Shown here one piece after another: positions 2,082 through 39,376 of a stretch of 64,000 nt of DNA (its first letter is position 1; every line of letters starts with the position of its first letter). Where the stretch lies: NCBI GenBank assembly GCA_963820525.1, contig CAWGAA010000003.1:32001-96000 (forward strand). Reading direction: 5' to 3'. Source of the stretch: an uncultured Spirochaetota bacterium (lineage in GTDB: Bacteria > Spirochaetota > Spirochaetia > SZUA-6 > Fen-1364). A program made the position numbers and the translations under genes. The notes under the pieces were generated by a model that was not told the DNA's origin, did not search any database, and saw nothing but the letters and a program-made list of their open reading frames with translations.

Positions 2082-2235
2082 CTCCCGCCGCAATAGAGAA
2101 TGGCAGCATGACCCTGATCTCCCTGTTCACTCCGGAGGGGCTGGTAAAGGTGGTCGCACCGTGAAGTTCAAAGCCATGTAGGCGCTTGCCGCGGGAAAGA
2201 AGAGGTAGCAGGCGGCAATCAGGAAAGGGTCCATG
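2082..2235 (-). pseudogene. hgcA: Fragment of the hgcA 3' region (last TM segments)
   Basis: Aligns with 28212-28366 (7 substitutions and a 1-nt deletion by manual count). Confidence 0.9.
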
Positions 2236-2528
2236 AAAGATCGGCGTTGAGGTCGATGTCGAGCCCATCGCGCTCAGCGTAGACGCGGCGATCGCCTGTG
2301 GGCTGATCCTTGGTGCATGCCGAATCCCCCGGCGCCGTCGTCATAGCGGTGAGCGATGACGGCCGCGGGCTTCCACCCGGCCTTGATTTCCGCAACTCCC
2401 CGTCCCCCGGGCTTCAAATCGTCAACATCATGGTTCGTAGACTAAATGGGACGATATCGCTCGGGGAGGGCGAGGGAACGAGTTTCAGGATCGCCTTCCC
2501 CGAGGAGACTGACGGCGCCACTGCGTGA
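2236..2528 (+). pseudogene. Remnant of a sensor histidine kinase C-terminus (HATPase_c)
   Basis: KIGVEVDVEPIALSVDAAIACGLI continues in another frame as VSDDGRGLP...GLQIV...GTSFRIAFP; N-box and N-terminus are absent. Confidence 0.7.
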
Positions 2529-6103: not shown

Positions 6104-6409
6104 GGGTTACTCCATTACGGCCTTGCCCAAGTTTTCCATGAGGGCCATGAGCACAGTGACGCTCATCAGACGCTGCTAGTATACACTCCCTGTCAATCGC
6201 CTTCATCGCCCATGTTCGCCGGTCTTCTGAAAGTGCTGTCACCGAGTCTTTCAAACCTCACGTAAATCGCTGCACGTTTCCGCTGTCGGGCCGAACGACG
6301 AGATGCGGCTCGCTGCCGAGACATTTCTCGGCTCGCGAAAAGGGTTCATAAGCGTCAAAGGCACGGCCGAAGCGATGGCCCTTCCGTCGGCATAGCGGGC
6401 AGCGCGCCC

Positions 6410-6825
6410 TCAATTACAGCAGCCGCTCTTCGCTCCACTGCCCCCGCCGCAGTCAGAGGCCGCGGCCGTGCTATTGCCGTCGGCCGACCCGGCCTTGCCT
6501 GCTGCTTGGCCGGCCTCTCCGCATCCGCCTGCCCCTGCCGCTCCCCTGCTCTCCCCACCGCACCCACAAGAGGGCTCTCTGCCGGTAAGGGCGCCGTTGA
6601 TGATCGCCGCGGCGCAACCTACGCCGCTTTTCACCTTTTATGGCTCCAAAGCGGCAGTTGGCTTCGCAGGCGCCGCACTCCATGCACAGGTCGCGGTCGG
6701 TGAGCAGGGCCTTGCCGCCGTTCACCCTATCGGAGTCCGGCATGAACACGCCGTGGGGGCACACCTCCCAGCAGCGGCCGCAGCCCGTGCACGCGGCCGG
6801 ATCGTAGGTCAGGGTCACAACGATC
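6410..6825 (-). pseudogene. hgcB: Second hgcB copy: 5'-truncated, +1 frameshift near 6635, fused to an istA fragment
   Basis: CTGCGRCWEVCPHGVF, CMECGACEANC, GVGCAAAII and terminal GCCN; highly similar to 27737-28145. Confidence 0.9.
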
Positions 6826-7202
6826 ATGGCCTCGCCATACAATCGCGCAATCTCCCCCTCGCTGGGAATCTCCGTGCGCACATCCAGCCAGCCTTCCCGA
6901 AGTGCGAGGTCCCGGACGGCCCGGATAACCGTCTTATGTCGACCCGTGTCCCGATGGATGGCTTTTACCGACTGGCCGAGCCGAAGCCGCTGCACGATCT
7001 CCCGTAGCTCCACCATTTGTACCCTCCTTGGCATGTTCCCCTCCCTGCGCCGATGGATGATGAGATCCATCATGGCATAGGGGGTCGTTATTCCTGCCGA
7101 GAGGGGGGGTCGCCAAACGTGCCGACCGGGGGGTCGTTTTACTTGACGGGGAGGGGGTCGCTATAAATGACGGACTGGGGTCGTTTACTATGCCGGTTTA
7201 CA
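6826..7202 (-). mobile_element. istA: IS21-family left end with truncated istA (HTH only)
   Basis: MPRRVQMVELREIVQRLRLGQSVKAIHRDTGRHKTVIR; terminus TGTAAACCGGCA at 7202; GGGGTCG repeats at 23-25 bp spacing. Confidence 0.8.
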
Positions 7203-14634: not shown

Positions 14635-14896
14635 GAAGCATTGAAGGCACGGTCAGCGAGCGATTGATAGCAACTACTATAGGTCCTCTGCGGGTGATTG
14701 CCAAGTGGTGAGGCCGCGAGGCGGCATAAAGCGGGTCTTGCAAGCCGTGAGCTGCGGATTGAGTAGCCGCCCATGAGGGGCATCAAGGGGAGAATCGACG
14801 CGCGAGTTGCGGCGGGCAGAAGAAGGGATGCCATCGCTCTCTGTATCCACACTGAAAGGACGGACTGGCCCCCAGGGTGGAGGGAGGGGAGAGGAA

Positions 14897-16637
14897 TCAG
14901 TTCAGCGACGCGGGGTGCAAGCCGGGTGGAGCCTTGCCGGTCTTGATGAGATGTCGCAGGATCTTGAGGACCTGCTTGGGGTCTGTGATGACGGCAAGCA
15001 CCTTCATCGGTTCGCCGCATCGCGCGCAGATCAACGGATCCGCGTCGTAGACCTTCTTGATCAGCCGAGCCCAGGCGGCACGGCTCTGCTTGGCCGACAC
15101 GGAGTCATCGGATTGGTGATCGTCGGGTGCACTGATGCGAACGGAAAGGTGGGGTGAATGCGCGCTCTTCCAGCCGTCGGGAGCGAGCCGCACGATGTAC
15201 GGGCTGGTAAGCCATGTGCCTCGACCGCGCGAGGAGTACAACCCGTAGCCGCGGATCAAGCGTGTGCGCGAGTCGGGCAGGTGCTGCAGGACCTCGGCGA
15301 CAAACTCGGTGGCGGGGAAGACTTTGGTGTCGGTGCGGAAGTAGTCGTTGTAGGGGGCATGGTAGACGACGGTATCCGTGCCTCCCTCGTCCACGAGAAG
15401 CTTCTTCAGCGAAAGGGGCGGCCGCACGATGTACTGCGAGAGCGCTTGGGGGCCTTGAGGGAACCCACGGGGATGCGGACGGATCCGTCAACGGAGAAGC
15501 CGGAGTGAGTCCAATCGACCATGCTCCTCGCCAGTCGTTTGTTCAAGAGCTTCCGCTGCAGGAAGAACGCGATGACCCTCTGGCGGAACCATGCACTCAT
15601 CTTCGCGAGGTCCACGACGGGGAGGTGGATGAATCTCCCTGTTGACACCGCTCGGAAACTGACCCTTTCACCGCCCGGAAATTGACCCACCTCCAGCCCT
15701 ATCTCCGGTAGAATCAGGTTGCCTAAACCAATCCACCGGAGGGAAGGATACTGAAGATGGGTCAAGCGCATGTTATCAGGCACAAGGTCTTCATAGAAGG
15801 CCGTTCCATTCGTCAGGTCACCGCACGCACAAACGAAAGGCAAAAGGAGGGCGAGAAGCTTCGGGTTCAGCATAAGGAGCCCGAGTGACACGGTGTGTCG
15901 CTTCATGTATAGTCCCTACGGCTGGGGTGGGTCAATTTCCGAGCGGTGAAGTGGATCAATAACCGAGCGGTGTTAGCACTCCCCTCCTTGTCGAACCCTC
16001 CCTCCAGGAAAAGCCCGTGCCAGTGCGGGTTCCATCGAGCGAATTCCCCCGAGCTCTGGAACACGATGACGCCGCCGGTGCGGATCTCCTTGCCCGCGGC
16101 TGCCATGGTGAAATCCCGTACAAACCCATAGACGAGTCGGCTGATCTCGCCGTGAAGCCGGCGGTCGTGACGGAAGAACACCCGCAGCACCTTGGGCACG
16201 GTGAAGACGAACTGCCGATGAGGCAGCCGTAGCAGCAGTTGCTCATTCATGTACTCGCCGAACAGGAGGGTCCGTTTCTGGGAGCAGGAGGGACAGAGGT
16301 GGAATACCTTGCAGGAGAAGGGTCGAAAGTATTCGGTCCTGCATCGCGGGTTGGTGCACTGGATGCGCGCGATCCCCTTGGTGTAGTCGCCGCACTCAAG
16401 AAACCGCTCCACAGCCTTGGTGAGCCGATCCAGGCGGAACCGTCCCACACGCCGGGCGTAGTGCGCCTCGTATCGTGCCGAGAAGCCCCCAAAGTGGGTA
16501 CGGAACAGACTCTGGAGCGAGCTGGTGCCCCGCTGCCGGTATGTTCCGGGTGGCGTCGCATCCAGGGACAGCGCCAGTTGCTCTGCCACAAGGGAGTAGA
16601 TGGCCTCAAGAGCGTGCCGCTTGCTTCCTGCGGGCAC
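14897..16637 (-). pseudogene. HUH transposase split by a MITE insertion and a frameshift near 15450
   Basis: Pieces in ORFs 15903-16637, 15406-15906 and 14897-15427; removing the insert and one TSD copy restores ...FDKEG-RFIHLP in frame. Confidence 0.85.
15640..15978 (+). mobile_element. 339-bp internally deleted IS21-family element (MITE) with 5-bp TSD CTCCC
   Basis: Ends TGTTGACACCGCTCGG / CCGAGCGGTGTTAGCA; CTCCC at 15635-15639 and 15979-15983; internal istA-like start LKMGQAHVIRHKVFIEGRSIRQV. Confidence 0.88.
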
Positions 16638-16649
16638 GTCCGACGCAAA

Positions 16650-17161
16650 ATGCTCTGGATTGGTGGTTCACCTGTTCGGGAAAGAGTACATGCGCCGATT
16701 ATTTGTCCAAGGAATATGGTTTTCAGGTTTATAGATGTGATGATTATATGTATAAACATATTGAAAAGTCCGATTCTGTAAAGAACCCGACAATGCATAA
16801 ACTTAAAGACATGACGTGGAATGAGATTTGGATGCGACCGGTTGACGACCAGATAATTGATGAAATCAATTTTTATTATGAAGAATTTGAGATGATTATT
16901 GAAGATATTGACGGGATGGAGTATTCAAATGGAATAGTAATTGAAGGAGCTGCAATTTTACCGGATTTGTTAAAAACTATTGGTGTAAAAGATAACCGTG
17001 TGCTATATTTGTTGCCTACTAGAGGATTTCAATATGAAAAATATTCAAAAAGGGAATTCATTAAAGATATTTTAAAGGAGTGCCTAAACCCGGAAAAAGC
17101 TTTTATAAACTGGATGGAAAGAGATCAAGGACTCTCAAAATATACCCTAACGTTGCAATAG
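16650..17161 (+). pseudogene. AT-rich P-loop (kinase-like) protein remnant
   Basis: LWIGGSP / CSGKST Walker A split by a 1-nt frameshift; IVIEG Walker B; markedly AT-rich; probably truncated. Confidence 0.65.
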
Positions 17162-17371
17162 ATCAGGGAGTTAAACGGCTGGGGCAAGACTTTCCATATA
17201 ATGCATTATTTCCTTTCGAGTTACTTCATTGCCACTCATAGTCAAACGAAAACGACCATGAGGTCGGGTCAAACGCCCTGGAGATATAACCGAAAGTTGT
17301 GGATGAGGCAAGAAAAAGAGCGTATCCTTCGATGTCCATCAGCCAAACGAAACACCGAAAGGAGTACGCTC

Positions 17372-17803
17372 ATGGAGAAAGACAAAGGTAGTACAGTCAG
17401 CCACAAGATTCAAGAGCAAACATCCGGGATGCTCCTGGAAGAGCTCGCCCGTAAGGGAGCTCAGCAGATTCTGGCACAAGCCTTGGAGAACGAAATCAGT
17501 GAGTTCATCGAGAAGTACCAACAAAGCAGCGATGCGGAGGGCAGGCGGCAGGTTGTCCGCAACGGCTACATGCCTGCCCGCGATCTGGTGACGGGGATCG
17601 GGCCCGTGACGATTCGCCAACCGCGCGTTGACGATCGGCGGCTCGAGGAGACCGAGAGGTTCAGCAGTCGGATATTGCCACGATATTTGAGACGTGTGGC
17701 GAGCGTGGATAACCTGATTCCGATCCTCTATCTCAAGGGAGTGAGCACGGGGGACTTTTCCGAAGCCTTGGAAGCGATCCTTGGCCCGGGTGCTCCCGGG
17801 TTA
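17372..17803 (+). mobile_element. IS256-family transposase, N-terminal fragment
   Basis: VVRNGY...TGIGPV.IRQPRVDDR...FSSRILPRY...LYLKGVSTGDFSEALEAILG; the DDE core is missing. Confidence 0.88.
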
Positions 17804-18996
17804 AGGATGTCGGCGTACGCCGCCCCGTCCTTGAACAAGGGCAGGGACTTGGAGCGGTCCGCGATGGCGAGAATGAGCGGCATGTACTCCGCGTACCTCG
17901 TGATGCCGGCGCCATACGCCTCTTTGGTGACGGGGAGCTTTCCCCAATTGTTGAACTGCCACTGCTGGAAGTCCTTGGAGAAGATGATCTCCCTGATGAA
18001 CGCCTTGGCGACGTCCTTGTTCTTGCTCGCGCTGGGGATCCACACGGAGTGCGTCCATATGATGCTTCCGTTCTTATCGGATCCGGGCCAGCTCACGTAC
18101 CCGATCGAATCTACGGGCTTGCCCGCGCTCAGGACGAGCTCCATCGTGTGGCCCTGCGCGGCAAAGAAGGACCCGGCCTTCCCGGTTTTCCACGCCTCGT
18201 AGCCCGCCGTATCGGTGACGGTGTAGTTCGCGAGCTTCTGCTTGTTCAGCTCCTGGAGCATTCCCAGCCACTTCTTGGCGGCCTCGCTCGACACGTCGTA
18301 GCCCTTCCCGCTCTTGTCCATGAAGGTTCCCGTCATGGCAAGCAGCGGCGCCACGTAGTTGTACTGGATGAACTCCTTGTCCCAGATCTGGACCTGGGCG
18401 CCCTGGTCCGCGTTCGGGGCCATCTTTTTGAACCAGTCGAAGAACGCGGGATCGTTGAAGGCGGGGATGGGCGCCGGCTTGCCGCCGACCCAAAGAACGG
18501 ACGCCTTCATGATCTCGGTGTTGATCCCGACGATCGCAACCTCACCCAGGAAGGGAATGACGGGACAGTAGCTGCCGCTTCCGTCGGCCTTCTTGAAGAG
18601 GCCCTCCCTGAGGAAGCCGCTCACGAAGTTTTCCTTCGCCATGTTGCCCGTGAGCATGTCGTCGAGGGGCTCCAGCCAGGCTCCCTGCCTGAGGATGTCG
18701 GCGAACTGAGCGCCCGTACCGGTCACGAACAGGTCGAACGAGGCCTGACCGGCCTGCCACTCCGGGATATACGCGGGGCCGCCCCACTTGTCCACGGTAA
18801 CGAGCTCGATCTTCACGTTGGGATGCGCCTTCATGAAGGTCTCGATCGACGGCACGAGGGCCGTCTTTGTCTTGGCCCAGGTCTGGGTCGCGATCGTCAG
18901 GGTCCTCGGCCCTGACGCGGAAATGTCCTTCTGTCCCCCGGCGAACAGGGTCGCCGCCGCGAAGACAAGAATGAGCAGGACAACGAGCTTCTTCAT
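17800..18996 (-). pseudogene. Carbohydrate ABC substrate-binding protein (family 1), 3' end replaced by IS256 DNA
   Basis: MKKLVVLLILVFAAATLFAGGQK signal; family-1 SBP motifs; reads into the antisense of IS256 after AAYADILN. Confidence 0.8.
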
Positions 18997-24065: not shown

Positions 24066-24891
24066 GAGCTCGCTCCCCCGCCGGCTTTTACAGACGCTCG
24101 CCATTTACCTGGCTCTCGCTGTCATGGCGGTGATAGTCCTCTTTCCCTTGCTGATCATCGCCTCGTCCTCGTTCAAGAACGAGGGAGAAATATTCAGCTG
24201 GCCCCTGACCATCGTCCCCCACCATCCCATTTTCTCGAACTTTGAGGCCCTCCTGGACCGCTTCCCTCTTTATATATGGAATTCGGTCAAGGTGACGGCC
24301 GCGATCGTCGCCGTGCAATTCATTACGTCCACCACCGGGGCATATGCGTTCTCGAAATTGCGCTGGCGGGGGAGGGACGCCCTTTTTCTGCTCTATATCG
24401 CTTCCATCATGATCCCCTCCAACTCGGTCATCATACCGCAATTCATCATCGTCCGTTCCCTTGGATTGTACGACACCCACGTGGCGCTCGTCCTCGTCTC
24501 CGCTTTCAGCGCCTTTGCGGTCTTCCTCACCAGGCAATACTTCCTCACGATCCCCGATTCACTCCTTGAAGCGGCGCGGATCGACGGCGCGTCGGAGTTC
24601 AGGATCTTCTCCCGGATAATGCTCCCGTTGTCGAAACCCATTGCGGTGACCGTGATAATCTTCTCCTTCCGTTACTTCTGGAACGACTTTTTCACCCCCC
24701 TTATCTATCTCACCTCCCCGGTCCTGAAGACCCTCCCCCTCGGAATGGCGGAGTTCGCCACCGAATACAGCGTCTCTTACGGTCCGCAGATGGCGGCGGC
24801 CCTCATTTCGATTCTTCCCGTGCTTGTGATCTTCATCATGGGACAACGCTATTTCGTAGAGGGTGTCGTGGCCTCGGGGATCAAGGGATGA
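24052..24891 (+). CDS. Carbohydrate ABC permease (MalG-like)
   Basis: IPDSLLEAARIDGA; WNDFFTPL. Confidence 0.93.
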   Translation: MIPRESSLPRRLLQTLAIYLALAVMAVIVLFPLLIIASSSFKNEGEIFSWPLTIVPHHPIFSNFEALLDRFPLYIWNSVKVTAAIVAVQFITSTTGAYAFSKLRWRGRDALFLLYIASIMIPSNSVIIPQFIIVRSLGLYDTHVALVLVSAFSAFAVFLTRQYFLTIPDSLLEAARIDGASEFRIFSRIMLPLSKPIAVTVIIFSFRYFWNDFFTPLIYLTSPVLKTLPLGMAEFATEYSVSYGPQMAAALISILPVLVIFIMGQRYFVEGVVASGIKG

Positions 24892-26703
24892 GCGAGAACC
24901 GGCCTTCGAATTTCGATCCCGGCATACACGTCGTCCACTACGCGGACGAGTTCAGGGCCCAGCGGTTGGATCATCGGACGCTCATCAACGATTTCGGACG
25001 GCAGCGCGAACCACTCGACGGAGAGTGGAGCTTCGTCGTGGACCAGTACGACAGCTTCCTGCGCCTCCGCTGGTTCGAGGAGCGCGAGAGGGATCCCGAA
25101 GGCCGGCCCCTTCCCCGGGATTACGATTTCGAGGCGTGGGAACGGATGCCCGTTCCCTCCTGCTGGAACGTGAGAAAGCCCGATTACCTCCTGTACGAGG
25201 GATCCTCGGTCTACACGCGAACCTTCCCATACAAGCCGGCGCAAGCGGGGCGCGCCCGTCAACCCCGCGTGTTCCTCAAGGTCGGCGCGGCCAACTACGA
25301 ATGCTTCGTTTTCCTGAACAAACGCTGCCTGGGCTCCCACCTGGGAGGCTCGACGCCGTTCTTCGTGGAGGTCACCCCGCACCTCCTGCCGGACAATCGC
25401 ATATCCCTCGTCGTGAACAACCGCAGGGAGAGCTTCCACGTCCCGGCGGACAATACGGACTGGTTCAATTACGGGGGGCTGTACAGAAGCGTGGAGCTGA
25501 TCTACGTTCCCGAGACCTTTATCAAGACCTACCAGGTCTCTCTTGTGCCCGGAGGCAGATTCGGCGCATTACGCGCGATGGTGGACCTCGACGGTTCCGA
25601 TGCGGAGGGGGAAGCGACCCTCCGCATCCCCGAGCTCGCGGTGGAGACACGGTTCGCCGTGTCCAAGGGGCTCGGCGCCTGTGAGCTCGAGGCTTACCCC
25701 AAGCTTTGGTCCCCGGAGTCGCCGAAGCTCTACAACGTAGAGATCTCCTATTCCGGTGGATCAGTGACAGACGTCGTGCGCGATAGAGTGGGATTCCGGG
25801 AGATCGCAACGCGCGGAACCTCGCTCCTGTTGAATGGAAAGCCGATCTACCTCAGGGGCGTGAGCTGCCATGAGGACAGCGTGGAGAACGGGAAGGCGGT
25901 ATCGCCCTCCGAGATCAGGGGAATGCTGGAGACCGTGCGGGAGCTCGGCTGCAATTTCCTGCGCCTCGCGCACTACCCCCACGCGGAGGAAGCGGCCCGG
26001 ATGGCCGACGAGCTGGGGATGCTCCTCTGGGAGGAAATCCCCGTGTATTGGGCGATCGACTTCGCGAATCCCGAAACATTCGCCGATGCGTACAACCAGC
26101 TCTCGGAAGCTCGTGCTCCGCGACCGCAACCGCGCCAGCGTGATCCTTTGGTCCGTGGGAAACGAAAATCCGGACAGCGACGAGCGGCTCTCCTTCATGT
26201 CGAGGCTCGCCAGCCGGGCGCGGGAGCTCGATCCCACGCGGCTCGTGACCGCAGCATGTCTCTGGGACACGCGGAACATGCGCATCGCGGACCGGCTTGC
26301 CGAGCACCTCGACGTACCGGGGATCAACGAATACTACGGCTGGTACGTCATGGGCTTCGATCGCCTGGAGCGGTTCTTCCGCGGGAGCGCCCCCGGCAAG
26401 CCGGTCATCGTGAGCGAATTCGGTGCCGATGCTCTGGCCGGGCATATTGGGGAAAAGAATGAGCTTTTCGGCGAAAACTATCAGCTCCACGTCTACCGCG
26501 AACAGATCAGGGTGATAAGCAAAGCCGATTACGTGGTCGGAATGACGCCGTGGATCCTCTTCGATTTCCGCTGCCCGCGGCGGACCAACGCGTTCCAGCG
26601 GGGATACAACCGCAAGGGATTGGTCGCCGCAGACCGCGTCCAACGGAAGCTTGCGTTCGCCGTTCTACAAGAGTATTACCGCGAGCGTGCTGAAAAGGAT
26701 TAG
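24888..26703 (+). pseudogene. GH2 beta-glucuronidase-like glycoside hydrolase, frameshift near 26108
   Basis: LRGVSCHED, LRLAHYPH, then in another frame WSVGNE, VSEFG and YNRKGL (N-x-K motif typical of GUS). May be a sequencing error. Confidence 0.8.
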
Positions 26704-27224
26704 CCGCGGGCGGAACGCTCACGCCCCGCCGTGAGCCCGTCCAGGTCGAGCCGCATCGTTTCCCCGTCGAAAAACTCCACGGTCAGTGCTCCGCCATCAA
26801 GGGTCGCCCTTACAACAAGTCCCTCGAGCTGATCGAAGGCTTCGGGCTCGAGGCGGGCCACGATGAGAGCGGCGAAATAGTGCACACCGGCGGGAAGAAG
26901 CCGAATGCCCAGCGTGGGAACGACGCTCCTCAGATAGCGCACGTTCCCCCCCGTGTCCTCTTCTCCAGGGCTTCCCGTGGAAGCAGTCTCCCAACCCGCA
27001 AGCCCGCGTATGAAGCTGACCCTATTTCCCGCCCTGGCGTACCCGGCGGGAGAGTCCGAACACCGTATCTCCGGCTCGCCCTCGTCCCATCCCAGGGGAT
27101 ATCCGCCCTCGCGGAAAAAAAGCGGCCTTGTGCACTCCACGCGATGGACCGTGATGAGGATATCGCCCTTCACCGCGACCCATCCCGAGCCGTGCCCTCC
27201 CTCATCGGTCTCCAGAAGGGGATA
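26700..27224 (-). pseudogene. C-terminal remnant of an unknown protein, truncated by the ISCR oriIS end
   Basis: Protein-like sequence YPLLETDEGG...; the N-terminal part of ORF 26700-27413 is IS DNA. Confidence 0.5.
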
Positions 27225-27697
27225 ATTGATAGTAACTACTATAGGTCCGTCTGCGGGTGATTGCCAAATGGTGAGGCCGCGAGGCGGCAAAAAACGGGTC
27301 TTGCAAGCCGTGAGCTGCGGATTGAGTAGCCGCCCGTGAGGGACATCATGGGGAGAATCGACGCGCGAGTTGCGGCGGGGAGAAGAAGGGATGCCATCGC
27401 TCTCTGTATCCACACTGAAAGGACGGACTGGCCCCCAGGGTGGAGTGAGGGGAGAGGAATCAATTCAGCGACGCGGGGTGCAAACCAGGTGGAGCCTTGC
27501 CGGTCTTGATGAGATGTCGCAGGATCTTGAGGGCCACTGCTTGGGGTCTGTGATGACGGCAAGCACCTTCATCGGTTCGCCGCATCGCGCGCAGATCAAC
27601 GGATCCGCGTCGTAGACCTTCTTGATCAGCCGAGCCCAGGCGGCACGGCTCTGCTTGGCCGACACGGAGTCATCGGATTGGTGATCGTCGGGTGCAC
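27225..27697 (-). mobile_element. Second, truncated copy of the ISCR-like element (oriIS plus transposase 3' end)
   Basis: Near-identical to 14663-15132. Confidence 0.92.
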
Positions 27698-27736
27698 CGA
27701 CCAACGCTTATGATCACTTGGATGCGTTGCGCGCCC

Positions 27737-28159
27737 TCACTTGCAGCAGCCGCTCTTGGCGCTCCCGCCGGCGTCGGCAGCCGTCACCCCGCTTATGCTG
27801 CCGGCCGACCCGGCCTTGCCTGCTGCTTGGCCGGCCTCTCCGCATCCGCCTGCCCCTGCCTCTCCCGTGCTCTCCCCACCGCATCCGCATGCCGACCCTC
27901 TGCCGGTAAGGGCGCCGTTGATGATCGCCGCGGCGCATCCCACGCCGCTTTTCACTTTTATTGCTCCAAAGCGGCAGTTGGCTTCGCAGGCGCCGCACTC
28001 CATGCACAAGTCACGGTCGGTGAGAAGGGCCTTGCCGCCGTTCACCCTTTCGGAGTCCGGCATGAACACGCCGTGGGGACACACCTCCCAGCAGCGGCCG
28101 CAGCCAGTACACACGGCCGGATCGTAGGTCAGGGTCACCACGTTCGCTATGTATTTCAT
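27737..28159 (-). CDS. hgcB: Mercury methylation ferredoxin HgcB (2x[4Fe-4S]) with extended Gly/Ala/Cys tail
   Basis: CTGCGRCWEVC, CMECGACEANC, GVGCAAAII, terminal GCCK; ATGA overlap with the hgcA stop. Confidence 0.95.
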   Translation of the reverse strand: MKYIANVVTLTYDPAVCTGCGRCWEVCPHGVFMPDSERVNGGKALLTDRDLCMECGACEANCRFGAIKVKSGVGCAAAIINGALTGRGSACGCGGESTGEAGAGGCGEAGQAAGKAGSAGSISGVTAADAGGSAKSGCCK

Positions 28160-29190
28160 AGAAGGCTCCATTCCTTCAGCTTGGAAAGCACAAGGGCGGC
28201 CATGCTCAATACTCCCGCCGCGATATAGAATGGCAGCATGACCTTGATCTCCTTTTTCACTCCGGAGGGGCTGGTGAAGGTGGTCGCACCGGTGAAGTTC
28301 AAAGCCATATAGGCGCTTGCCGCGGGAAAGAAGAGGTAGCAGGCGGCAATCAGGAAAGGGTCCATGCCGGCGGCCAGGCCCAGGCCGTGCAGCAGTGCCG
28401 CGGTTCCCGCCGCTCCCAGGATCCACCCTTTCACGGAGAACAGGCGGAAGGGAATAAAGGGCAGGAGCACGGGGGCAAGGAACGAGCCGCAAAGGATAGA
28501 TGCCAAGCCCAAGGCGAACAGGGGCAGACCATTGGTCCACCCTCGGCTGAAGACTATTCCCGCAGGCGTCACGCCCATGATCACGAACGCGGCCAGGAGA
28601 AACGCGGGGTAGCGCATGAGGGATTGGCTCAGCTCCATGGGGGCCAGGGTGAGCCGCTCTGTAATGCCGAAACGCACGCGCCGCATCTCCGGGCTCGCCT
28701 TCATGCCCGCGCTCATGTACGCGGGGAGGTCCCGCGCGCGCACCGGCCCGAAGCGGACACGGAACCCCGTCCTCTGCTCCACGACGTGGGCGCGGATCCC
28801 GGGGGCGCCGAGCTGGGGAAGGATGATGGTCCTATGGCGCACTACTTCGGCCAGCCGTGTCGCCTCGATCCGCTCCACCAGCTCTTCGGTGCCGAAGGTC
28901 CCCTTTCCAGCGGCGCACCAGACGTTGATGCCCTTCGTGTCCAGAACGAGGATCCAGCCGTCGATGCCGCCCAGCTCGCGGCGAAGGGTATCGAAGCTGA
29001 GCTTGTAGTTGGCGCTCGCGAAAACGGGGGAATCGAAGCCGGGGCTGCCCATGGCGTACAACCCCTGCGGCACGCTGTATCGGTTGCGATAGCTTCCGAT
29101 GCGGCAGCGCACGGCTCCCCACCTGTCTTCAGGCGACCATGCAGGGTTGGTTCTCAGGTACCTGGGTGGTGAAAGTATCGCGCTCGGCAT
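28156..29190 (-). CDS. hgcA: Mercury methylation corrinoid protein HgcA
   Basis: Cap-helix motif TKGINVWCAAGKG; ANYKLSFD; ILPQLGAPG; GPVRARDLP; C-terminal TM domain with NFTGATTFTSPSGVKKE. Confidence 0.97.
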   Translation of the reverse strand: MPSAILSPPRYLRTNPAWSPEDRWGAVRCRIGSYRNRYSVPQGLYAMGSPGFDSPVFASANYKLSFDTLRRELGGIDGWILVLDTKGINVWCAAGKGTFGTEELVERIEATRLAEVVRHRTIILPQLGAPGIRAHVVEQRTGFRVRFGPVRARDLPAYMSAGMKASPEMRRVRFGITERLTLAPMELSQSLMRYPAFLLAAFVIMGVTPAGIVFSRGWTNGLPLFALGLASILCGSFLAPVLLPFIPFRLFSVKGWILGAAGTAALLHGLGLAAGMDPFLIAACYLFFPAASAYMALNFTGATTFTSPSGVKKEIKVMLPFYIAAGVLSMAALVLSKLKEWSLL

Positions 29191-29223
29191 CGAGTGCCAG
29201 GGTACGCCGGGCGGAAATGCCTG

Positions 29224-30504
29224 TCAATTCGCCAGATGGGGCGTCGGCCGCTCCCCCTTCACCCGCATTGCGGCAAGGTGGCCCAGGAACACAACGGAGC
29301 TTGCAAGGAGGAAACCCGCCGCGGCCGCGAATGTCCGTGAATACCCCTGCCCCCTGATGAGATAGCCTCCCGTCACGGCGGAGAAGGCAAGCCCAAGGGT
29401 GGTTGCCATGTTGGCTACTCCGGACATGAGGGGACGCCAGCGTGAAGTGACGATCTGCAGGATATAGACCTGCATGGCCGCCTCGTTGATCGAGTTGGCC
29501 GCCGTCATTCCCGCCCACCCGAGCGCAGCCGCCGCCCAGTGCGGGAAAATCGAGAGGGGAACGACGCTCGCCATCATGACAAGGAGGCTCACCAGGGAAA
29601 CAGGACCTGTTCCCCTGCGTTTTGCCAGGACGGGCATGAGCGGGGTGAACGCGATTGCGGCAATCGAGGAGACGCTCACCAGGAGCCCGACCAGCGCGGT
29701 GGGAAGCCCGAGCTTCTCGTCGAGGTAGACGTTGTAGAAGTTGAGCACGCCCCCGTAGCCCATCTCGCGGAGGAAGCGTATCAGCGCGATCACGGAAACG
29801 ATCCCGAGGGGAAAGCGCCGCACCGAGGCCCTCTCCCTCTCCTCGCCGCCCGGAGCTTCGCGGAACATCGACAGGGCGACCAGACCCGGGATGAGAATGA
29901 CCACCGCCGTCCAGAGCGAAAAGCCATAGGGAGCGGGAGAGGAGAGCGAGCCGAGGTTCAGAGATGAAAAGAGCTGGGGCAGGAGGCCCCCGATGAGGCT
30001 GCCGCCGAAGGACGTGAGGGATACGATCGTGCCGTTGAAGGCGAAGGCGTAGGTGCTGGATCCTCCCCCGGCCGCGCTCATCAGGGCCGGGTTGGAGTTC
30101 ACCAGGAATATCGCACCGCCGATTGACGAAAGCACCCGGGAGGCGACGAGCGTCTCCATGACGCCTCCGCCGGGCAGGAAGGCAGCCACCGGCGCCATCC
30201 CCCAGCCCGCAATCGCCATGATGCCGCCCGATATCATCGACCGCCGGATGCCGAAGCGCACCCCGATCGCTCCGGCGGGCACGCTTGCCGCCATGTGGAT
30301 GATGTATCCGAGGAAATTGAGATTCCCCATCACCTCGGTTCCATATCCGAGACGGCGCACGAAGAGGTTGGTGAGAAGATACGTGATGCCCCAGTAGGTG
30401 AAACCGAGGAGACCGGCTACGGTGAACAGCAGGTAGACATTGCGGTCGAAACCTCGAATCGCGGAAGCCCAGCTCTGCCGCTGCCCCCTGTCAGGTTCTC
30501 TCAC
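29224..30504 (-). CDS. MFS transporter
   Basis: About 12 hydrophobic segments; motif-A-like GAIGVRFGIRRS; start taken at GTG 30504 (uncertain). Confidence 0.85.
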   Translation of the reverse strand: MREPDRGQRQSWASAIRGFDRNVYLLFTVAGLLGFTYWGITYLLTNLFVRRLGYGTEVMGNLNFLGYIIHMAASVPAGAIGVRFGIRRSMISGGIMAIAGWGMAPVAAFLPGGGVMETLVASRVLSSIGGAIFLVNSNPALMSAAGGGSSTYAFAFNGTIVSLTSFGGSLIGGLLPQLFSSLNLGSLSSPAPYGFSLWTAVVILIPGLVALSMFREAPGGEERERASVRRFPLGIVSVIALIRFLREMGYGGVLNFYNVYLDEKLGLPTALVGLLVSVSSIAAIAFTPLMPVLAKRRGTGPVSLVSLLVMMASVVPLSIFPHWAAAALGWAGMTAANSINEAAMQVYILQIVTSRWRPLMSGVANMATTLGLAFSAVTGGYLIRGQGYSRTFAAAAGFLLASSVVFLGHLAAMRVKGERPTPHLAN

Positions 30505-30628
30505 CTCCGAGTCCCCCGATCCCCAATGTCTTAAAGTATCGCGGAGGCCGGGCAAGAGGTCAACGCGTTGCCCCGGAAATCGCGGCCCTTCCGCATCGCC
30601 CAACGCCGCGCTATGATGGGCCTCGCAG

Positions 30629-31423
30629 ATGGCACGAATCCTCATCGGCACGAGCGGCTACTCTTACGACGATTGGGTGGGGCCCCTCTATCCCCCGGGA
30701 ACTCCCAAGAGCGGCTTCCTCTCCCTCTACGCCCGGGAGTTCCCCATTGTGGAGCTCAACTTCTCCTACTATGCCCAGCCGAGCCCCCGCACTCTCCAGA
30801 GAATGGTGGAGAACACCCCCGAGGGGTTTCTCTTCTCCCTGAAGGCGCATCGAAGCATGACTCATGAGATCTCGGATACCTGGGAGAAGGACGTGGCAGT
30901 CTTCCGCGAGGGGATCCAACCCCTCGTGGAGGCGGGCCGCCTGAGCGCGGTGCTTCTCCAGTTCCCCTACAGCTTCGCCTACACTCCGGAGTCCCGGCAG
31001 AGGCTTGCCGCCCTCTGCGACAGGCTCTCGGGCCTGCCGCTCGCCGTCGAGTTTCGAAAAAGCGAATGGCAGAAAGACGCGGTTCTCGAGGGGCTTCGCC
31101 GGCGGTCGATCGGCCTGGTGAGCGTGGACGAGCCAGACCTTCCCCGCCTGCTCAAACCCACAGCCGAGGTCACCGCGGATCTTTCCTATGTTCGATTTCA
31201 CGGCAGGAACAAGGAAAACTGGTGGGCCGGAGACAACGCCTCCCGCTACGATTACCTCTACGGCAGAGAGGAGCTCATTCCATGGGTGCAGAGGATCAAG
31301 GAGATCCTCCACAGGGCCCGCGTGCTCCTTTTGTTCTTCAACAACCACGCGAGGGGAAGGGCGGTTCAGAACGCCCGGGAGATGCGGGAAATCCTCCGCG
31401 AGGAGGGGCTCCCGGTCGCGTGA
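30629..31423 (+). CDS. DUF72 (YecE-like) protein
   Basis: IGTSGYSYDDW.G.LYP; VELNFSYY; LLQFP; AVEFR; YVRFHGRN; YDYLY; FFNNH. Confidence 0.93.
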   Translation: MARILIGTSGYSYDDWVGPLYPPGTPKSGFLSLYAREFPIVELNFSYYAQPSPRTLQRMVENTPEGFLFSLKAHRSMTHEISDTWEKDVAVFREGIQPLVEAGRLSAVLLQFPYSFAYTPESRQRLAALCDRLSGLPLAVEFRKSEWQKDAVLEGLRRRSIGLVSVDEPDLPRLLKPTAEVTADLSYVRFHGRNKENWWAGDNASRYDYLYGREELIPWVQRIKEILHRARVLLLFFNNHARGRAVQNAREMREILREEGLPVA

Positions 31424-31450
31424 GCCCCACTCCCTGCCCTCCCGTTCGCG
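31377..31450 (+). repeat. 74-bp direct repeat, copy A (DUF72 3' end and flank)
   Basis: Matches 39303-39376 with 5 mismatches. Confidence 0.92.
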
Positions 31451-31544
31451 AACGGGTGGGAAACCGTGTACGCGTTCTTCGGCATCTCTTCATCCAAGGA
31501 TTCTTCCCGGGCACCGAATCAGTCCGGGACCATGCGGAAGAGCT

Positions 31545-34497: not shown

Positions 34498-37400
34498 CTA
34501 CGGCCTGTACGTGACCGCGACGTGGCCGTAGCGGCCGGCGGGCATGCTCGCGAGCGTGGTCCATGTGCCGGGAGTCGCGGGAGGGGGGAGCGAGGTCAGG
34601 TTGCAGAGGTTGCTCAGATCGAACGAGTACACATTGTTCACGCCGCTGGCGGAGGCCAACAAAGTTGAAGTGCCGCCGAAAACGTACATGATCGATCCTG
34701 AAAGGGCGGCGGAGCTGAACCCATACGATTGGGGAAAGACGCCGGTGGTGCCGCCGTTCGCCCAGACGGCCGTGCCGGTGAATGGATAGTACAGGAACTG
34801 AAATACATTGGTCGGCGTGCTTGTTGCGCCCATTCCATTGACGATGAAGCACTGGGGGGTTCCCGAAAGGGCGGTGAATCCCCCGACGATCGCCATGATC
34901 GTGGGACCCGAGGTCGGCGTATATATCACGCCGGATATACCGGTTCGGGCAAGGGCGGTATATGGCGTAACGCCTATATTCAAGACGACTTCCTGGCCCG
35001 CCGTGAGGCCTCCCGTGGTGGGGGGACTTGAGACGGCAAGTCCGTCATGCGTGGAGGCCGGCGTGGCTGCGGCCGTGCGCCCGCCGAAATTATAGATGAC
35101 GTCGCCGTACGCGAGTGCGAAGCGTTCTGACCCGGCTGCGCCGAATGCGACCTTCCCGGTATACCAACTGCCGGCTGCGCCGGAAACGGGCGTGTACTCG
35201 TATGTGGTAGTCGTGGCCGCGCCCGCCCATGCCACGCCGGCTGCGCCCGTGGTTCCGCCCAATACGTAGATTCTATTGTTCACTACAACCGCGTGGATGT
35301 TCGCCTTTGCGACGGGCATCTGGGCCGGCACGGGGCTGGTCTGCCATGAATTGGCTGCTATATTATAGATCTGCACCGAGCTGAGAACGGCGCCGCTTGA
35401 ATTGAATCCGCCGATCACGTAGATGTTCCCTCCCAATGAGCACGCCGCGGCGAAACTCACGGGAGTGGGCAAGGTAGTGACGGCTTGATACCAGGTATCG
35501 ATTACCGGATCGTACAGATCGACATTGGCGACAACCGAACCGATGAGATTCGTCGAGAGCCCGCCGATCATCCATATCCCGCGCTGTTTCTTCGCCAAGG
35601 TGGGTTCCGCCTCGGTCGGGGTGAACGAGTTTTCGGCGCTCACCACGAAGGGCAGGGTCGCGCTGTAATTCTTCACCCTGTAATAGTAGACTTGGTTGCT
35701 CGTCAGCCCCGAAAGGGTGACCGAGTGCGAGGTGCCGGCGGTCTGCGACTGGATCGTAGAATACGCGTAGGTGCCTGACCCGGCGTGGGACACTGTGTCG
35801 TACTCCACGAGGTGGGTCGTGGCTACGTTCGTCGTCCAGGTGATGTCGGCCGTGGTCGATGATGTGGGTGTCGCCGTGAGAAGCGTCACAGCTATCGCGA
35901 TGGTTGTGGTGAAGGTGTACCCGCTGTCCACCTTCGCCGGTCCCGTGCCCACGAAATTCCTGAGTTGGTAGGAATATTGGGTCGACGGGCTGAGCCCGGA
36001 CAGGGTGATCGTGTGCGAAGTGGTAGGCGTGGTGGATTGCAGCGTGGCGTACGTGTAGGTACCGGGGATGGTGCCGTACTCGACAAGGTGGGTGGCGGCG
36101 ACGTTCGTCGTCCATGCGATGTTCGCAGTCGTCGCCGCCGGCGTCGCGGTAGGCCCCGCGGAGACGGTGATGGCGGGCGTCGTGAAGGAGCTCTCGGTGC
36201 TCACGGAGTCGGGCATGGATGGATTGAAATTCCATACCCGGTAGTAGTACTTGGTTGATTCCGAGAGTCCGGAGAGGGTAACGGAGTGGGATGTCGCGGC
36301 CGTCTGTGAAACCGCGGTCGCGTACGCGTAGGTTCCGGTCGCGGTGCCGTATTCCACGAAGTGGGTGGTGGCCACGTCCGTGGTCCAGCTGATCGTGGCC
36401 GCGCTGGGCGACGTGGGTGTCGCCGTGAGGAGCGTCACCCCTATTTGGACAACGGCCGTCGTGGTGAACGAATAGGGGCCGTCCACCTTCGCCGGTCCCG
36501 CGCCCACGAAGTTCCTGAGCCTGTAAAAATATTGGGTCGACGGACTGAGCCCGGACAGGGTGATCGTATGCGAAGTCGCGGCGGCCCCCGACGAGTACGC
36601 GGAATATTCATAGGTACCGGAGACGGTACCGAAATCCACCACGGCCGTCGTGGCGACGTTCGTCGTCCATGAGATGTCCGCCGTCGTTTCCGACGGCGTT
36701 GCGGTAGGCCCGCCGGTGACGGTGATCGTGTTCGTCGTGAAGGATCTCTCGGTGCTCACGGAGTCGGGCATGGACGGGTTGAAATTCCTCACTCTGTAGT
36801 AATACACGGTGGATTCCGCGAGCCCGGAGAGGGTCACGGAGTGGGACGTATTGGCCGTCGGCGAAAGTACGGTCGCGTACGCGTAGGTGCCGGACACGGT
36901 GCCGTATTCCACGAAGTGGGTGGTGGCCACGTCCGTGGTCCAGGTGATATCGGCCGTGGTCGGCGATGTGGGTGTCGCCGTGAGGAGCGTCACCTGGATC
37001 ACCGGCGTAGCCGTGGTTGCGAACGAGCCCTCCGCACTCAACGTGGCGGGCATCGTCGTGTGGAAATTCCGAACCCGATAGTAGTACGTGGTCGATGCAG
37101 CAAGCCCCGTCAGGGGGACGGAGTGGGAGGTGTCGGCGGTCAGTGACTGGATCGTTGAAAGGTCGAGGCTGCCGGAAGTCGTGCCGTATTCCACGAGGTG
37201 CGTTGTCGGCACGTCCGTGATCCAGGCGACATTGGCCGTCGTTTGCGATGAGGTCGCCGCGAGCCCCGTCACTTGGATTCCCGGGAATGCAATCGTGGTG
37301 AACGTGTTCTCCGCGCTCTTCGAAGCCGACATCTCGGCGTCGATGTTGGTCACCCGATAGTAGTACTGGGTAGATGCCGTGAGTCCCGACAGGGTGACGG

Positions 37401-37662
37401 AATGTGAGGTGTCGGGGGTCTGCGACTGGGCCGTCGCATTGGAATACGCTCCCGAGACCGTTCCATATTCCACGAAATGGGTGGTCGGTTTCTCCGTGGT
37501 CCACGCGATAGTCGCACCCGTTTGCGAGGCCGTCACCGAAAGCCCCGTAATGACGACCGACTTCGTGCCCGGCGGAGTCTCAAGCAGCGACCCGTTGCAT
37601 GAGGCGAGCGCGACCGTCAACGCCATATACAGGAAAGGCTTCATGAATGATTTCCCTTTCAC
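34498..37662 (-). CDS. Surface lipoprotein with 7 Fn3-like repeats and a C-terminal Kelch propeller
   Basis: Lipobox LASC; seven W-T/I-T...VEYG...HSVTLSGL...YYYRV units; Kelch motifs IYVIGG, IYVLGG, MYVFGG. Confidence 0.88.
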   Translation of the reverse strand: MKGKSFMKPFLYMALTVALASCNGSLLETPPGTKSVVITGLSVTASQTGATIAWTTEKPTTHFVEYGTVSGAYSNATAQSQTPDTSHSVTLSGLTASTQYYYRVTNIDAEMSASKSAENTFTTIAFPGIQVTGLAATSSQTTANVAWITDVPTTHLVEYGTTSGSLDLSTIQSLTADTSHSVPLTGLAASTTYYYRVRNFHTTMPATLSAEGSFATTATPVIQVTLLTATPTSPTTADITWTTDVATTHFVEYGTVSGTYAYATVLSPTANTSHSVTLSGLAESTVYYYRVRNFNPSMPDSVSTERSFTTNTITVTGGPTATPSETTADISWTTNVATTAVVDFGTVSGTYEYSAYSSGAAATSHTITLSGLSPSTQYFYRLRNFVGAGPAKVDGPYSFTTTAVVQIGVTLLTATPTSPSAATISWTTDVATTHFVEYGTATGTYAYATAVSQTAATSHSVTLSGLSESTKYYYRVWNFNPSMPDSVSTESSFTTPAITVSAGPTATPAATTANIAWTTNVAATHLVEYGTIPGTYTYATLQSTTPTTSHTITLSGLSPSTQYSYQLRNFVGTGPAKVDSGYTFTTTIAIAVTLLTATPTSSTTADITWTTNVATTHLVEYDTVSHAGSGTYAYSTIQSQTAGTSHSVTLSGLTSNQVYYYRVKNYSATLPFVVSAENSFTPTEAEPTLAKKQRGIWMIGGLSTNLIGSVVANVDLYDPVIDTWYQAVTTLPTPVSFAAACSLGGNIYVIGGFNSSGAVLSSVQIYNIAANSWQTSPVPAQMPVAKANIHAVVVNNRIYVLGGTTGAAGVAWAGAATTTTYEYTPVSGAAGSWYTGKVAFGAAGSERFALAYGDVIYNFGGRTAAATPASTHDGLAVSSPPTTGGLTAGQEVVLNIGVTPYTALARTGISGVIYTPTSGPTIMAIVGGFTALSGTPQCFIVNGMGATSTPTNVFQFLYYPFTGTAVWANGGTTGVFPQSYGFSSAALSGSIMYVFGGTSTLLASASGVNNVYSFDLSNLCNLTSLPPPATPGTWTTLASMPAGRYGHVAVTYRP

Positions 37663-39218: not shown

Positions 39219-39303
39219 CGATTGATAGTAACTACTCTAGTGTCCTCTGCGGGTTATTGCCAAGTGGTGAGGCCGCGAGGCGGCAAAAAACGGGTCTTGC
39301 AAG
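39219..39303 (-). mobile_element. Third (85-bp) copy of the ISCR-like oriIS end
   Basis: Matches 14661-14744 with few mismatches. Confidence 0.88.
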
Positions 39304-39376
39304 GGACATGCGGGAAATCCTTCGCGAGGAGGGGCTCCCGGGCGCGTGAGGCCCACTCCCTGCCCTCCCATTCGCG
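39303..39376 (+). repeat. 74-bp direct repeat, copy B (duplicate of the DUF72 3' end)
   Basis: Encodes MREILREEGLPGA*, versus MREILREEGLPVA* at the end of DUF72. Confidence 0.92.

Follow-up and report, generated by a model that had tools for sequence, protein, structure and literature searches.

An intact hgcAB gene pair adjoins a truncated IS91-family element in an uncultured Spirochaetota bacterium

Introduction

In the IS91 model, as given in excerpts of PMC13181058, transposition is initiated at oriIS, which lies behind the transposase gene tnpA, and proceeds to terIS; termination fails in 1–14% of events, and adjacent DNA is then carried along. At the ori end, the last 82 bp together with a flanking tetranucleotide are enough, the bottom strand being the active one, and experimental mini-IS91 elements consisted of 89 bp of terIS and 82 bp of oriIS around a marker. 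For IS801 and IS1294, the same excerpts describe cleavage at 5'-GTTC beside a subterminal palindrome. Here, we analyzed a 64,000-nt stretch of DNA (the window; assembly GCA_963820525.1, contig CAWGAA010000003.1, positions 32,001 to 96,000) from an uncultured Spirochaetota bacterium, in which the truncated remnant (stump) of an IS91-family insertion sequence (IS) lies directly behind hgcAB, a gene pair for which mercury methylation is predicted.

Trees indicate extensive transfer of hgcAB, and the question is how it spreads between phyla. ISCR elements, e.g., ISCR1 in complex class 1 integrons, adjoin captured resistance genes and normally keep an intact transposase. In the part of McDaniel et al. 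2020 (PMC7438021) available to us, hgcA was near no known IS or transposase, and in an excerpt of PMC9690531 it was on none of 18,731 plasmids. We found no published IS-linked hgcAB in the literature outside subscription journals.

The locus described here resembles published hgcAB loci in having hgcA followed by an overlapping hgcB, in the cap-helix motif and in its chromosomal location; it is unlike them in the IS stump 36 nt away and in a decayed second copy within the same 64 kb. As in IS91, IS801, IS1294 and IS1294b, the parent element has Zn_Tnp_IS91 and Y2_Tnp domains and two unlike ends, the transposase gene is followed by a conserved ori-type terminus that includes a small hairpin, and the cargo is found on the ter side. 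In contrast to these elements, all that is present behind hgcB is a 476-bp stump without transposase, no GTTC or CTTG is recognizable at its end, and any activity would be hypothetical. With ISCR elements beside resistance genes it has in common that a rolling-circle element without ter end is fixed beside genes it could carry. Unlike them, it lacks a transposase, its family failed the ISCR_clade_Ia model, and its cargo would be a chromosomal, apparently vertically inherited hgcAB instead of a resistance gene.

Results

The genes hgcA and hgcB are both intact, judged by sequence, and methylation is predicted (Table 1). Both products passed the cut-offs of the NCBI equivalog models for HgcA and HgcB, i.e., NF040863 and NF040864, respectively. 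The intact pair proposed in an initial annotation of the window was hence borne out, whereas the hgcB end given there (28162) was 3 nt too long. The HgcA cap helix reads GINVWCAAGK and fits the motif G(I/V)NVWC(A/S/G)(A/S/G)GK as printed in an excerpt of PMC9690531; N89, V90 and C92 were invariant in an alignment of 10 family sequences. The hgcB start overlaps the hgcA stop as ATGA, and the whole genome contains a single intact hgcA. On the minus strand, the order is MFS transporter gene, hgcA, hgcB, 36-nt spacer and IS tail. HgcB also carries a Gly/Ala-rich tail of ~45 aa (27737–27900) before a terminal CC(K/N), here CCK, and comprises 140 aa compared with 93 positions in the family model.

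The stump (copy B) matches positions 14663–15135 of a longer element in the window (copy A) with 96.4% identity over 476 bp (BLAST; 97.0% counting substitutions only), a sequence match that cannot be chance. It consists of the last ~80 transposase codons (27460–27700) and a 235-nt 3' tail; all sequence that would precede these codons is missing, and with it the catalytic domain and any ter end. Its 79-aa frame gave no Pfam match, i.e., neither Zn_Tnp_IS91 nor Y2_Tnp, and therefore holds no catalytic domain. The adjacency of hgcB and this element, already noted in the initial annotation, was confirmed with a gap of 36 nt (27701–27736) in place of the 40 bp reported; apart from its first ~10 nt, the spacer has no other occurrence in the genome (blastn-short). 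As the adjacency is one event in an IS-rich genome, no enrichment statistic is applicable. We likewise agree with the earlier description of a truncated copy that keeps its ori end and lacks its 5'/ter end, since a conserved ori-type terminus is retained and there is no ter end. The proposed geometry also held, with hgcB, hgcA, MFS and DUF72 on the ter side of the stump. From this geometry we infer that strand transfer would begin at position 27225, cross the stump and continue into hgcB, hgcA, MFS and DUF72.

Of 41 related genomes, 33 had an HgcA match, as did 22 of the 24 genomes belonging to the same family. For six relatives, we compared 19 kb of context each: DUF72 (68–72% identical) and hgcA were syntenic in all six, with MFS between them in five. 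In an HgcA tree of 89 rows (two of 91 sequences were dropped as short or interrupted matches), the window protein fell into a clade of 11 rows, all of the same family, with a support (SH-like approximate likelihood ratio test, SH-aLRT) of 100. HgcA identity was 57–69% in the family and 50–55% outside and thus followed the same descending order as that of RpoB (family, 88–90% for long matches and 82–92% for short fragments; outside, 76–81%). Because HgcA groups in a same-family clade and the DUF72-(MFS)-hgcA synteny is complete, we hold it to be fairly probable that the DUF72/MFS/hgcA/hgcB cluster is old, vertically inherited and chromosomal and that the stump arrived later. By these comparisons, the IS did not bring hgcAB to this site.

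We then looked for further cases of IS-linked hgcA with the IS91 transposases of this genome as tblastn queries and with the ori motif as a regular expression. Neither was found in 80 hgcA loci on genome contigs (best 80 of 598 relatives; 1.17 Mb, median 15 kb, 33 loci of at least 20 kb) or in 80 metagenome loci (best 80 of 581; 0.64 Mb, median 5.7 kb), i.e., in 160 public loci, and tblastn found IS91 transposases in none of 11 relatives' loci. Searches with HgcA among 72,556 plasmids, 50,697 phages and the IMG/VR contigs gave no match. By these screens, IS91 linkage of hgcA is not general. The initial annotation had seen in the stump a concrete vehicle for the transfer of hgcAB. As an explanation of the hgcAB distribution, this is not supported, in view of the same-family HgcA clade, the synteny in six of six relatives and the lack of any other IS91-linked locus, which largely correspond to the outcomes named there as speaking against the idea.

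Table 1. Features of the hgcAB locus and related sequences in the window (positions 1 to 64,000).
Feature	Position	Strand	Description	Match or evidence
hgcA	28156..29190	-	344 aa, intact	NF040863 399.8 bits (cut-off 275); Pfam CdhD 1.9e-14
hgcB	27737..28159	-	140 aa, intact	NF040864 113.5 bits (cut-off 99); two Fer4 motifs
MFS transporter	29224..30651	-	upstream of hgcA, start codon uncertain	Pfam MFS_1 2.6e-20
DUF72 gene	30629..31423	+	divergent from MFS-hgcAB	Pfam DUF72 2.2e-65
IS91-family stump (copy B), 5'-truncated	27225..27700	-	476 bp, on the hgcB strand	match to copy A
Spacer from hgcB stop to stump	27701..27736	-	36 nt	first ~10 nt common to decayed hgcB
Ori-type terminal motif CTATAGTAGTTACTATCAAT	27244 to 27225	-	20 nt, ends the stump tail	small hairpin ATAGT-N4-ACTAT
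Copy A, longest of this IS subfamily	14663..16637	-	12.5 kb from stump	Zn_Tnp_IS91 3.9e-14; Y2_Tnp 1e-6
Scar (copy C)	39221..39376	-	156 bp; 83 nt of ori end joined to 74-bp cluster-edge segment	
74-bp segment recurring in scar	31377..31450		last 47 nt of DUF72 and 27 nt beyond	
Decayed second hgcB	6402..6825	-	codon 8 to 10 nt past stop; 1-nt insertion shifts frame	
Decayed hgcA 3' fragment	2082..2235	-	codons ~275–326, 1-nt deletion	

The 20-nt motif CTATAGTAGTTACTATCAAT or a close variant of it is the terminal sequence at 13 of 14 IS91-family 3' ends examined in the genome, and of copy C as well. In public data it occurred 13 times in eleven loci (L019–L029) that had been retrieved with the motif itself; six of these loci stem from spirochaete metagenome-assembled genomes (MAGs), two of which have a full IS91 transposase. 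By our own arithmetic, the motif pattern would be expected by chance about four times in 596 Gb. Sequences flanking the motif diverge directly past its end, and the ori-type end of the stump is therefore complete. Visible palindromes at the ori end are ATAGT-N4-ACTAT and GCCGC-ctc-GCGGC. Predicted single-strand DNA folds of the ori ends and of the 31370–31460 edge were not significant (z = -1.06, 0.30, -1.74 and -0.10), we therefore argue structure from the visible palindromes only. No GTTC- or CTTG-type tetranucleotide was recognized outside the ori end, where the four bases past the motif vary among 27 ends; possibly, the last four bases of the motif itself (CAAT, CATT, CGTT or CCTT) are the target-derived part. 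The excerpts of PMC13181058 and PMC12772301 contain no printed oriIS consensus. An open reading frame fragment past the ori end (26700–27239) had no homologue in 40 relatives and is therefore uninformative on whether the insertion cut a gene. Four of the public spirochaete MAG contigs (L019, L021, L023 and L028) have the 20-nt ori-type motif without an IS91 transposase on the DNA examined, several times at the end of a contig, and may represent either solo ori stumps of the kind seen behind hgcB or contig breaks at IS copies.

We assign the stump's parent family to IS91 because the upstream frames of copy A match Zn_Tnp_IS91 and Y2_Tnp. An intact relative on another contig of the same genome passes the IS91 model NF033538 with 135.6 bits (cut-off 125). 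The ISCR label of the initial annotation was rejected, as the scores with the ISCR_clade_Ia model (NF052416) were 23, 43, 63 and, for the intact relative, 128.6 bits, all far below its cut-off of 925. Copy A, the sole close copy of the stump, is dead. Its transposase is distributed over three frames and split by a 348-bp insert (15642–15989), which has 58-bp terminal inverted repeats (15645–15701 and 15917–15973) and the look of a miniature inverted-repeat transposable element; these defects were seen in a collinear comparison with an uninterrupted element in locus L026. Four long IS91-family frames of 447–600 aa are found elsewhere in the genome (C2:57077–58501, C2:65399–66799, C2:44769–46109 and C1:1302635–1300836). 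They are 64–71% identical to the copy A transposase, and between the tails of their elements and the stump, similarity is confined to the terminal ~20 nt. A ready transposase that could be supplied in trans, as the move proposed in the initial annotation would require, was not supported: the only copy with ~97% identity is broken by the 348-bp insert and frame changes, and the intact ones, at 64–71%, come with unrelated subterminal sequence.

The ter end of the stump's subfamily, copy A included, was not definable in an upstream alignment of the C2 and C1 copies with copy A or from copy A compared with L026 and L027. The only left edge that we could place was that of the C2 subfamily, and its ter end does not finish at GTTC. 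On contig C2 of the genome (G000), a second IS91 subfamily forms a dense cluster at 5–67 kb, which comprises at least ten copies, full or partial and in some cases nested in one another; at C2:14381, the ori end of one such copy abuts the tail of another. Adjoining copy A in the window are a degraded Mutator/IS256-family transposase (17201–18202, plus strand; Transposase_mut 3.8e-12) and a P-loop kinase-like gene (16475–17161) with a 5' end apparently clipped by copy A.

The window holds further pieces of the hgc block, namely a 156-bp scar (copy C), which had not been described in the initial annotation, and decayed copies of hgcA and hgcB. In the scar, 39221–39303 repeats the terminal 83 nt of the ori end (27225–27307) and abuts 39303–39376, which is 93.2% identical to 31377–31450. 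The scar thus equals the hgc block minus 27308–31376, with order and orientation kept. In short-read contigs, the joint 27306 to 31377 was present in one contig of sample X3 and a loose end at 27307 in X4; the scar junction is therefore no assembly quirk. The two halves diverge similarly from their parent (3/82 and 5/74). Compared with mini-IS91, the scar is alike in that its ori end (83 nt) and opposite edge (74 nt) are near the minimal functional ends in size, and unlike in that the 74-nt edge is host DNA (the DUF72 gene end) without an IS ter end and that it is a single copy. Past the ori end, ~16 nt of flank in copies B and C share TTCTGGAG...GATGA, a score reached by 29 of 2000 shuffles. 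This likeness suggests that the flank was copied too, as opposed to a transposition that began cleanly at the ori end.

The decayed hgcB is 88.9% identical to the intact gene (BLAST; 90.4% for substitutions only and 94.7% in the ferredoxin part). It has the same Gly/Ala-rich tail (6410–6570) with a 6-nt indel, and in the alignment it is not followed by the stump. Its 5' end, from codon 8, is fused in frame to an ~82-aa N-terminal helix-turn-helix-like fragment (6826–7073, minus strand), which we take to resemble the start of an IS21-type transposase; for the fused frame, Pfam gave ferredoxin domains only. The decayed hgcA fragment is 94.8% identical (BLAST; 95.5% for substitutions only). For all pieces, i.e., the scar and the hgcA and hgcB fragments, divergence from the intact block is 4–10%, a range that agrees with a single event, and their presence in the window points to a block that, as a whole or for the most part, was probably copied once, the copy then decaying. 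The variant bases of the decayed hgcA at 28276 and 28309 also occur in a short X4 contig and a longer X1 contig, and the latter has its 1-nt deletion as well and extends well past the range of the fragment. These variants could reflect a strain allele of hgcA and be a weak hint of import; alternatively, they could stem from cross-mapping of the fragment or a chimeric contig. Beside the decayed hgcA piece, a short frame (2310–2528, plus strand) is a putative histidine kinase ATPase end, and the first 7 kb of the window are a patchwork of gene fragments.

The genome comprises four contigs with 5.05 Mb. A short-read contig of X1 (26816–27264) spans the ori end and its flank with 0 mismatches. No listed short-read contig crosses the hgcB/stump junction (27700–27737), which therefore rests on the assembly alone; coverage gaps are not probative. 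The read data consisted of assembled contigs, in which circles, starts and levels are not visible, and contig joints with sides of <30 nt inside hgcA stem from the hgcA of other organisms. One base at 27249 is lacking in three contigs of X1 and in contigs of X3 and X5, and X1 also lacks two bases at 27535–27536. Both are likely small insertion errors, and the assembly therefore contains minor indel errors. Artefacts may hence underlie some of the frameshifts in the window, such as those in the stump, in a glycosidase gene and perhaps in parts of copy A, of which the 348-bp insert is no indel-type assembly artefact. The glycosidase gene, of the GH2 family (24888–26703, plus strand), consists of two overlapping frames of 524 and 277 aa, both matching Glyco_hydro_2 domains, and is either a frameshifted pseudogene or shows an assembly indel. 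A 1054-aa frame at 34498–37662 (minus strand) has long internal repeats (~1.3-kb units, 66–70% nucleotide identity) and apparently encodes a repetitive surface-type protein.

Discussion

We consider it the most plausible reading, at a confidence somewhat better than even, that an inherited hgcAB stands beside a later-arrived, passive IS91 stump. The setting would be an inherited DUF72/MFS/hgcA/hgcB cluster within a stretch full of IS debris, where an IS91-family element presumably inserted in intergenic DNA directly past hgcB. This insertion may have been abortive, the rolling-circle copy ending prematurely, or it may have been complete, with ~1.5 kb at the 5' side being lost later. Left over would be the 476-bp stump, i.e., a passive remnant without enzyme and ter end that has kept the ori-type terminus of its family and at which a compatible IS91-family transposase in trans could start and copy hgcB-hgcA-MFS-DUF72. 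Mobilization of hgcAB from the stump at present is hypothetical.

Several observations weigh against this reading. Contigs of short-read MAGs break at IS copies, which biases the screen of 160 loci towards missing IS links. Among the six relatives, hgcB adjoins this hgcA solely here and in the closest relative; no hgcB was found within 9 kb in the other five (tblastn, E < 1), so that the hgcB side varies within the family. These five (loci L014–L018 in G007, G022, G015, G019 and G021) are from the neighbouring genus and have an orthologous DUF72-MFS-hgcA. In one of them (L016), a gene for an S-adenosylmethionine-dependent methyltransferase-like protein converges on hgcA in the place of hgcB, and many of these genomes have a second, more distant hgcA (~50% identity). 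The genome moreover contains three to four apparently intact IS91-family transposase frames, in elements that share the terminal ~20-nt motif. The scar also has to be accounted for, as its left edge is the exact IS terminus and its right edge falls 2 nt beyond the midpoint of CCCGTTCGCGAACGGG (31441–31456), a perfect 16-nt palindrome that contains GTTC. An exact ori edge combined with a GTTC palindrome edge would be the expected look of a one-ended product that was later emptied. The scar end lengths of 83 and 74 nt are about those sufficient for mini-IS91 (82 and 89 bp; PMC13181058, excerpt), and its ori piece, with 3 mismatches against copy B and 5 against copy A, is nearer to the former.

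The scar could thus record that the block 27225–31450 moved once by IS91-type one-ended transposition, from the ori end to a pseudo-ter at the GTTC palindrome past DUF72, and that the daughter at 39.2 kb lost its inner 4,069 bp. Both block ends are present in unchanged order and orientation, similarly diverged and with a junction found in other samples, and GTTC cleavage beside a palindrome in IS801 and IS1294 and termination failure in IS91 are precedents, as far as the excerpts of PMC13181058 go. However, the scar breaks 3 nt after GTTC, not on it, and since the C2 subfamily's ter end, the only one mapped, does not end at GTTC either, we regard GTTC as weak evidence; for the stump's own subfamily, a ter end cannot be defined. 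The flank of copy C past the ori end resembles that of copy B, which is unexpected at a new target site, there is a single scar and no full-length daughter in the genome, and the decayed hgcB has no stump after it. An identical scar would result from repair that copied a patch from a template, or from a segmental duplication with a subsequent deletion. We therefore regard such a one-ended move as unlikely, albeit worth serious consideration, and judge transposase action behind the scar about equally doubtful; duplication, recombination or import from a near relative is somewhat more likely as the source of the second hgc copy. Slightly less credible still is the wider claim that the 4.2-kb ori-hgcB-hgcA-MFS-DUF72 block acted as a transposable unit via an IS91 transposase in trans, with the scar as its emptied daughter.

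Cross-mobilization of the stump by the resident IS91 transposases is conceivable, and one might suppose that the stump is a working origin from which they are able to mobilize hgcAB today. Up to the last conserved base, its terminus is the same as in copies A and C, and its 476 bp exceed the 82 bp that are enough in IS91 (PMC13181058, excerpt). Intact frames of 447–600 aa exist in the genome, one of them passing NF033538, in elements that end in a related 20-nt motif; yet these transposases are just 64–71% identical to that of copy A, and the 3' tails of their elements have nothing in common with the stump beyond the last ~20 nt. Moreover, the flanking tetranucleotide required by IS91 was not identified, flanks past the motif being variable, and we saw no direct sign of mobilization activity. 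We consider a working origin improbable. It is most improbable of all that the hgcB/stump adjacency is an assembly error from misjoined repeat copies. The small indel errors in the window (27249 and 27535) and the lack of a listed contig across 27700–27737 would allow for it, but with the genome in four contigs, a 476-bp repeat was probably bridged by long reads, the X1 contig covers the ori/flank junction without mismatch, and the stump differs from copy A at 14 positions and hence is a distinct copy.

As far as the excerpts of PMC7438021 and PMC9690531 reach, the literature reports hgcA near no IS or transposase and on no plasmid; our screens agree, with none on plasmids, phages or viral contigs. 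The locus is a rare physical link of an intact hgcAB to a rolling-circle element, and the window also contains the debris of a second copy of hgcAB. It does not account for the hgcAB distribution, because the genes are inherited here and the IS is dead. It does offer a concrete, testable geometry, and the scar makes the transposon idea testable; if the block had indeed been a transposable unit, a transposon with hgcAB as cargo would for the first time have been traced at the molecular level. The locus also indicates that hgcAB can occupy rearrangement-prone, IS-rich DNA with duplication and loss under way.

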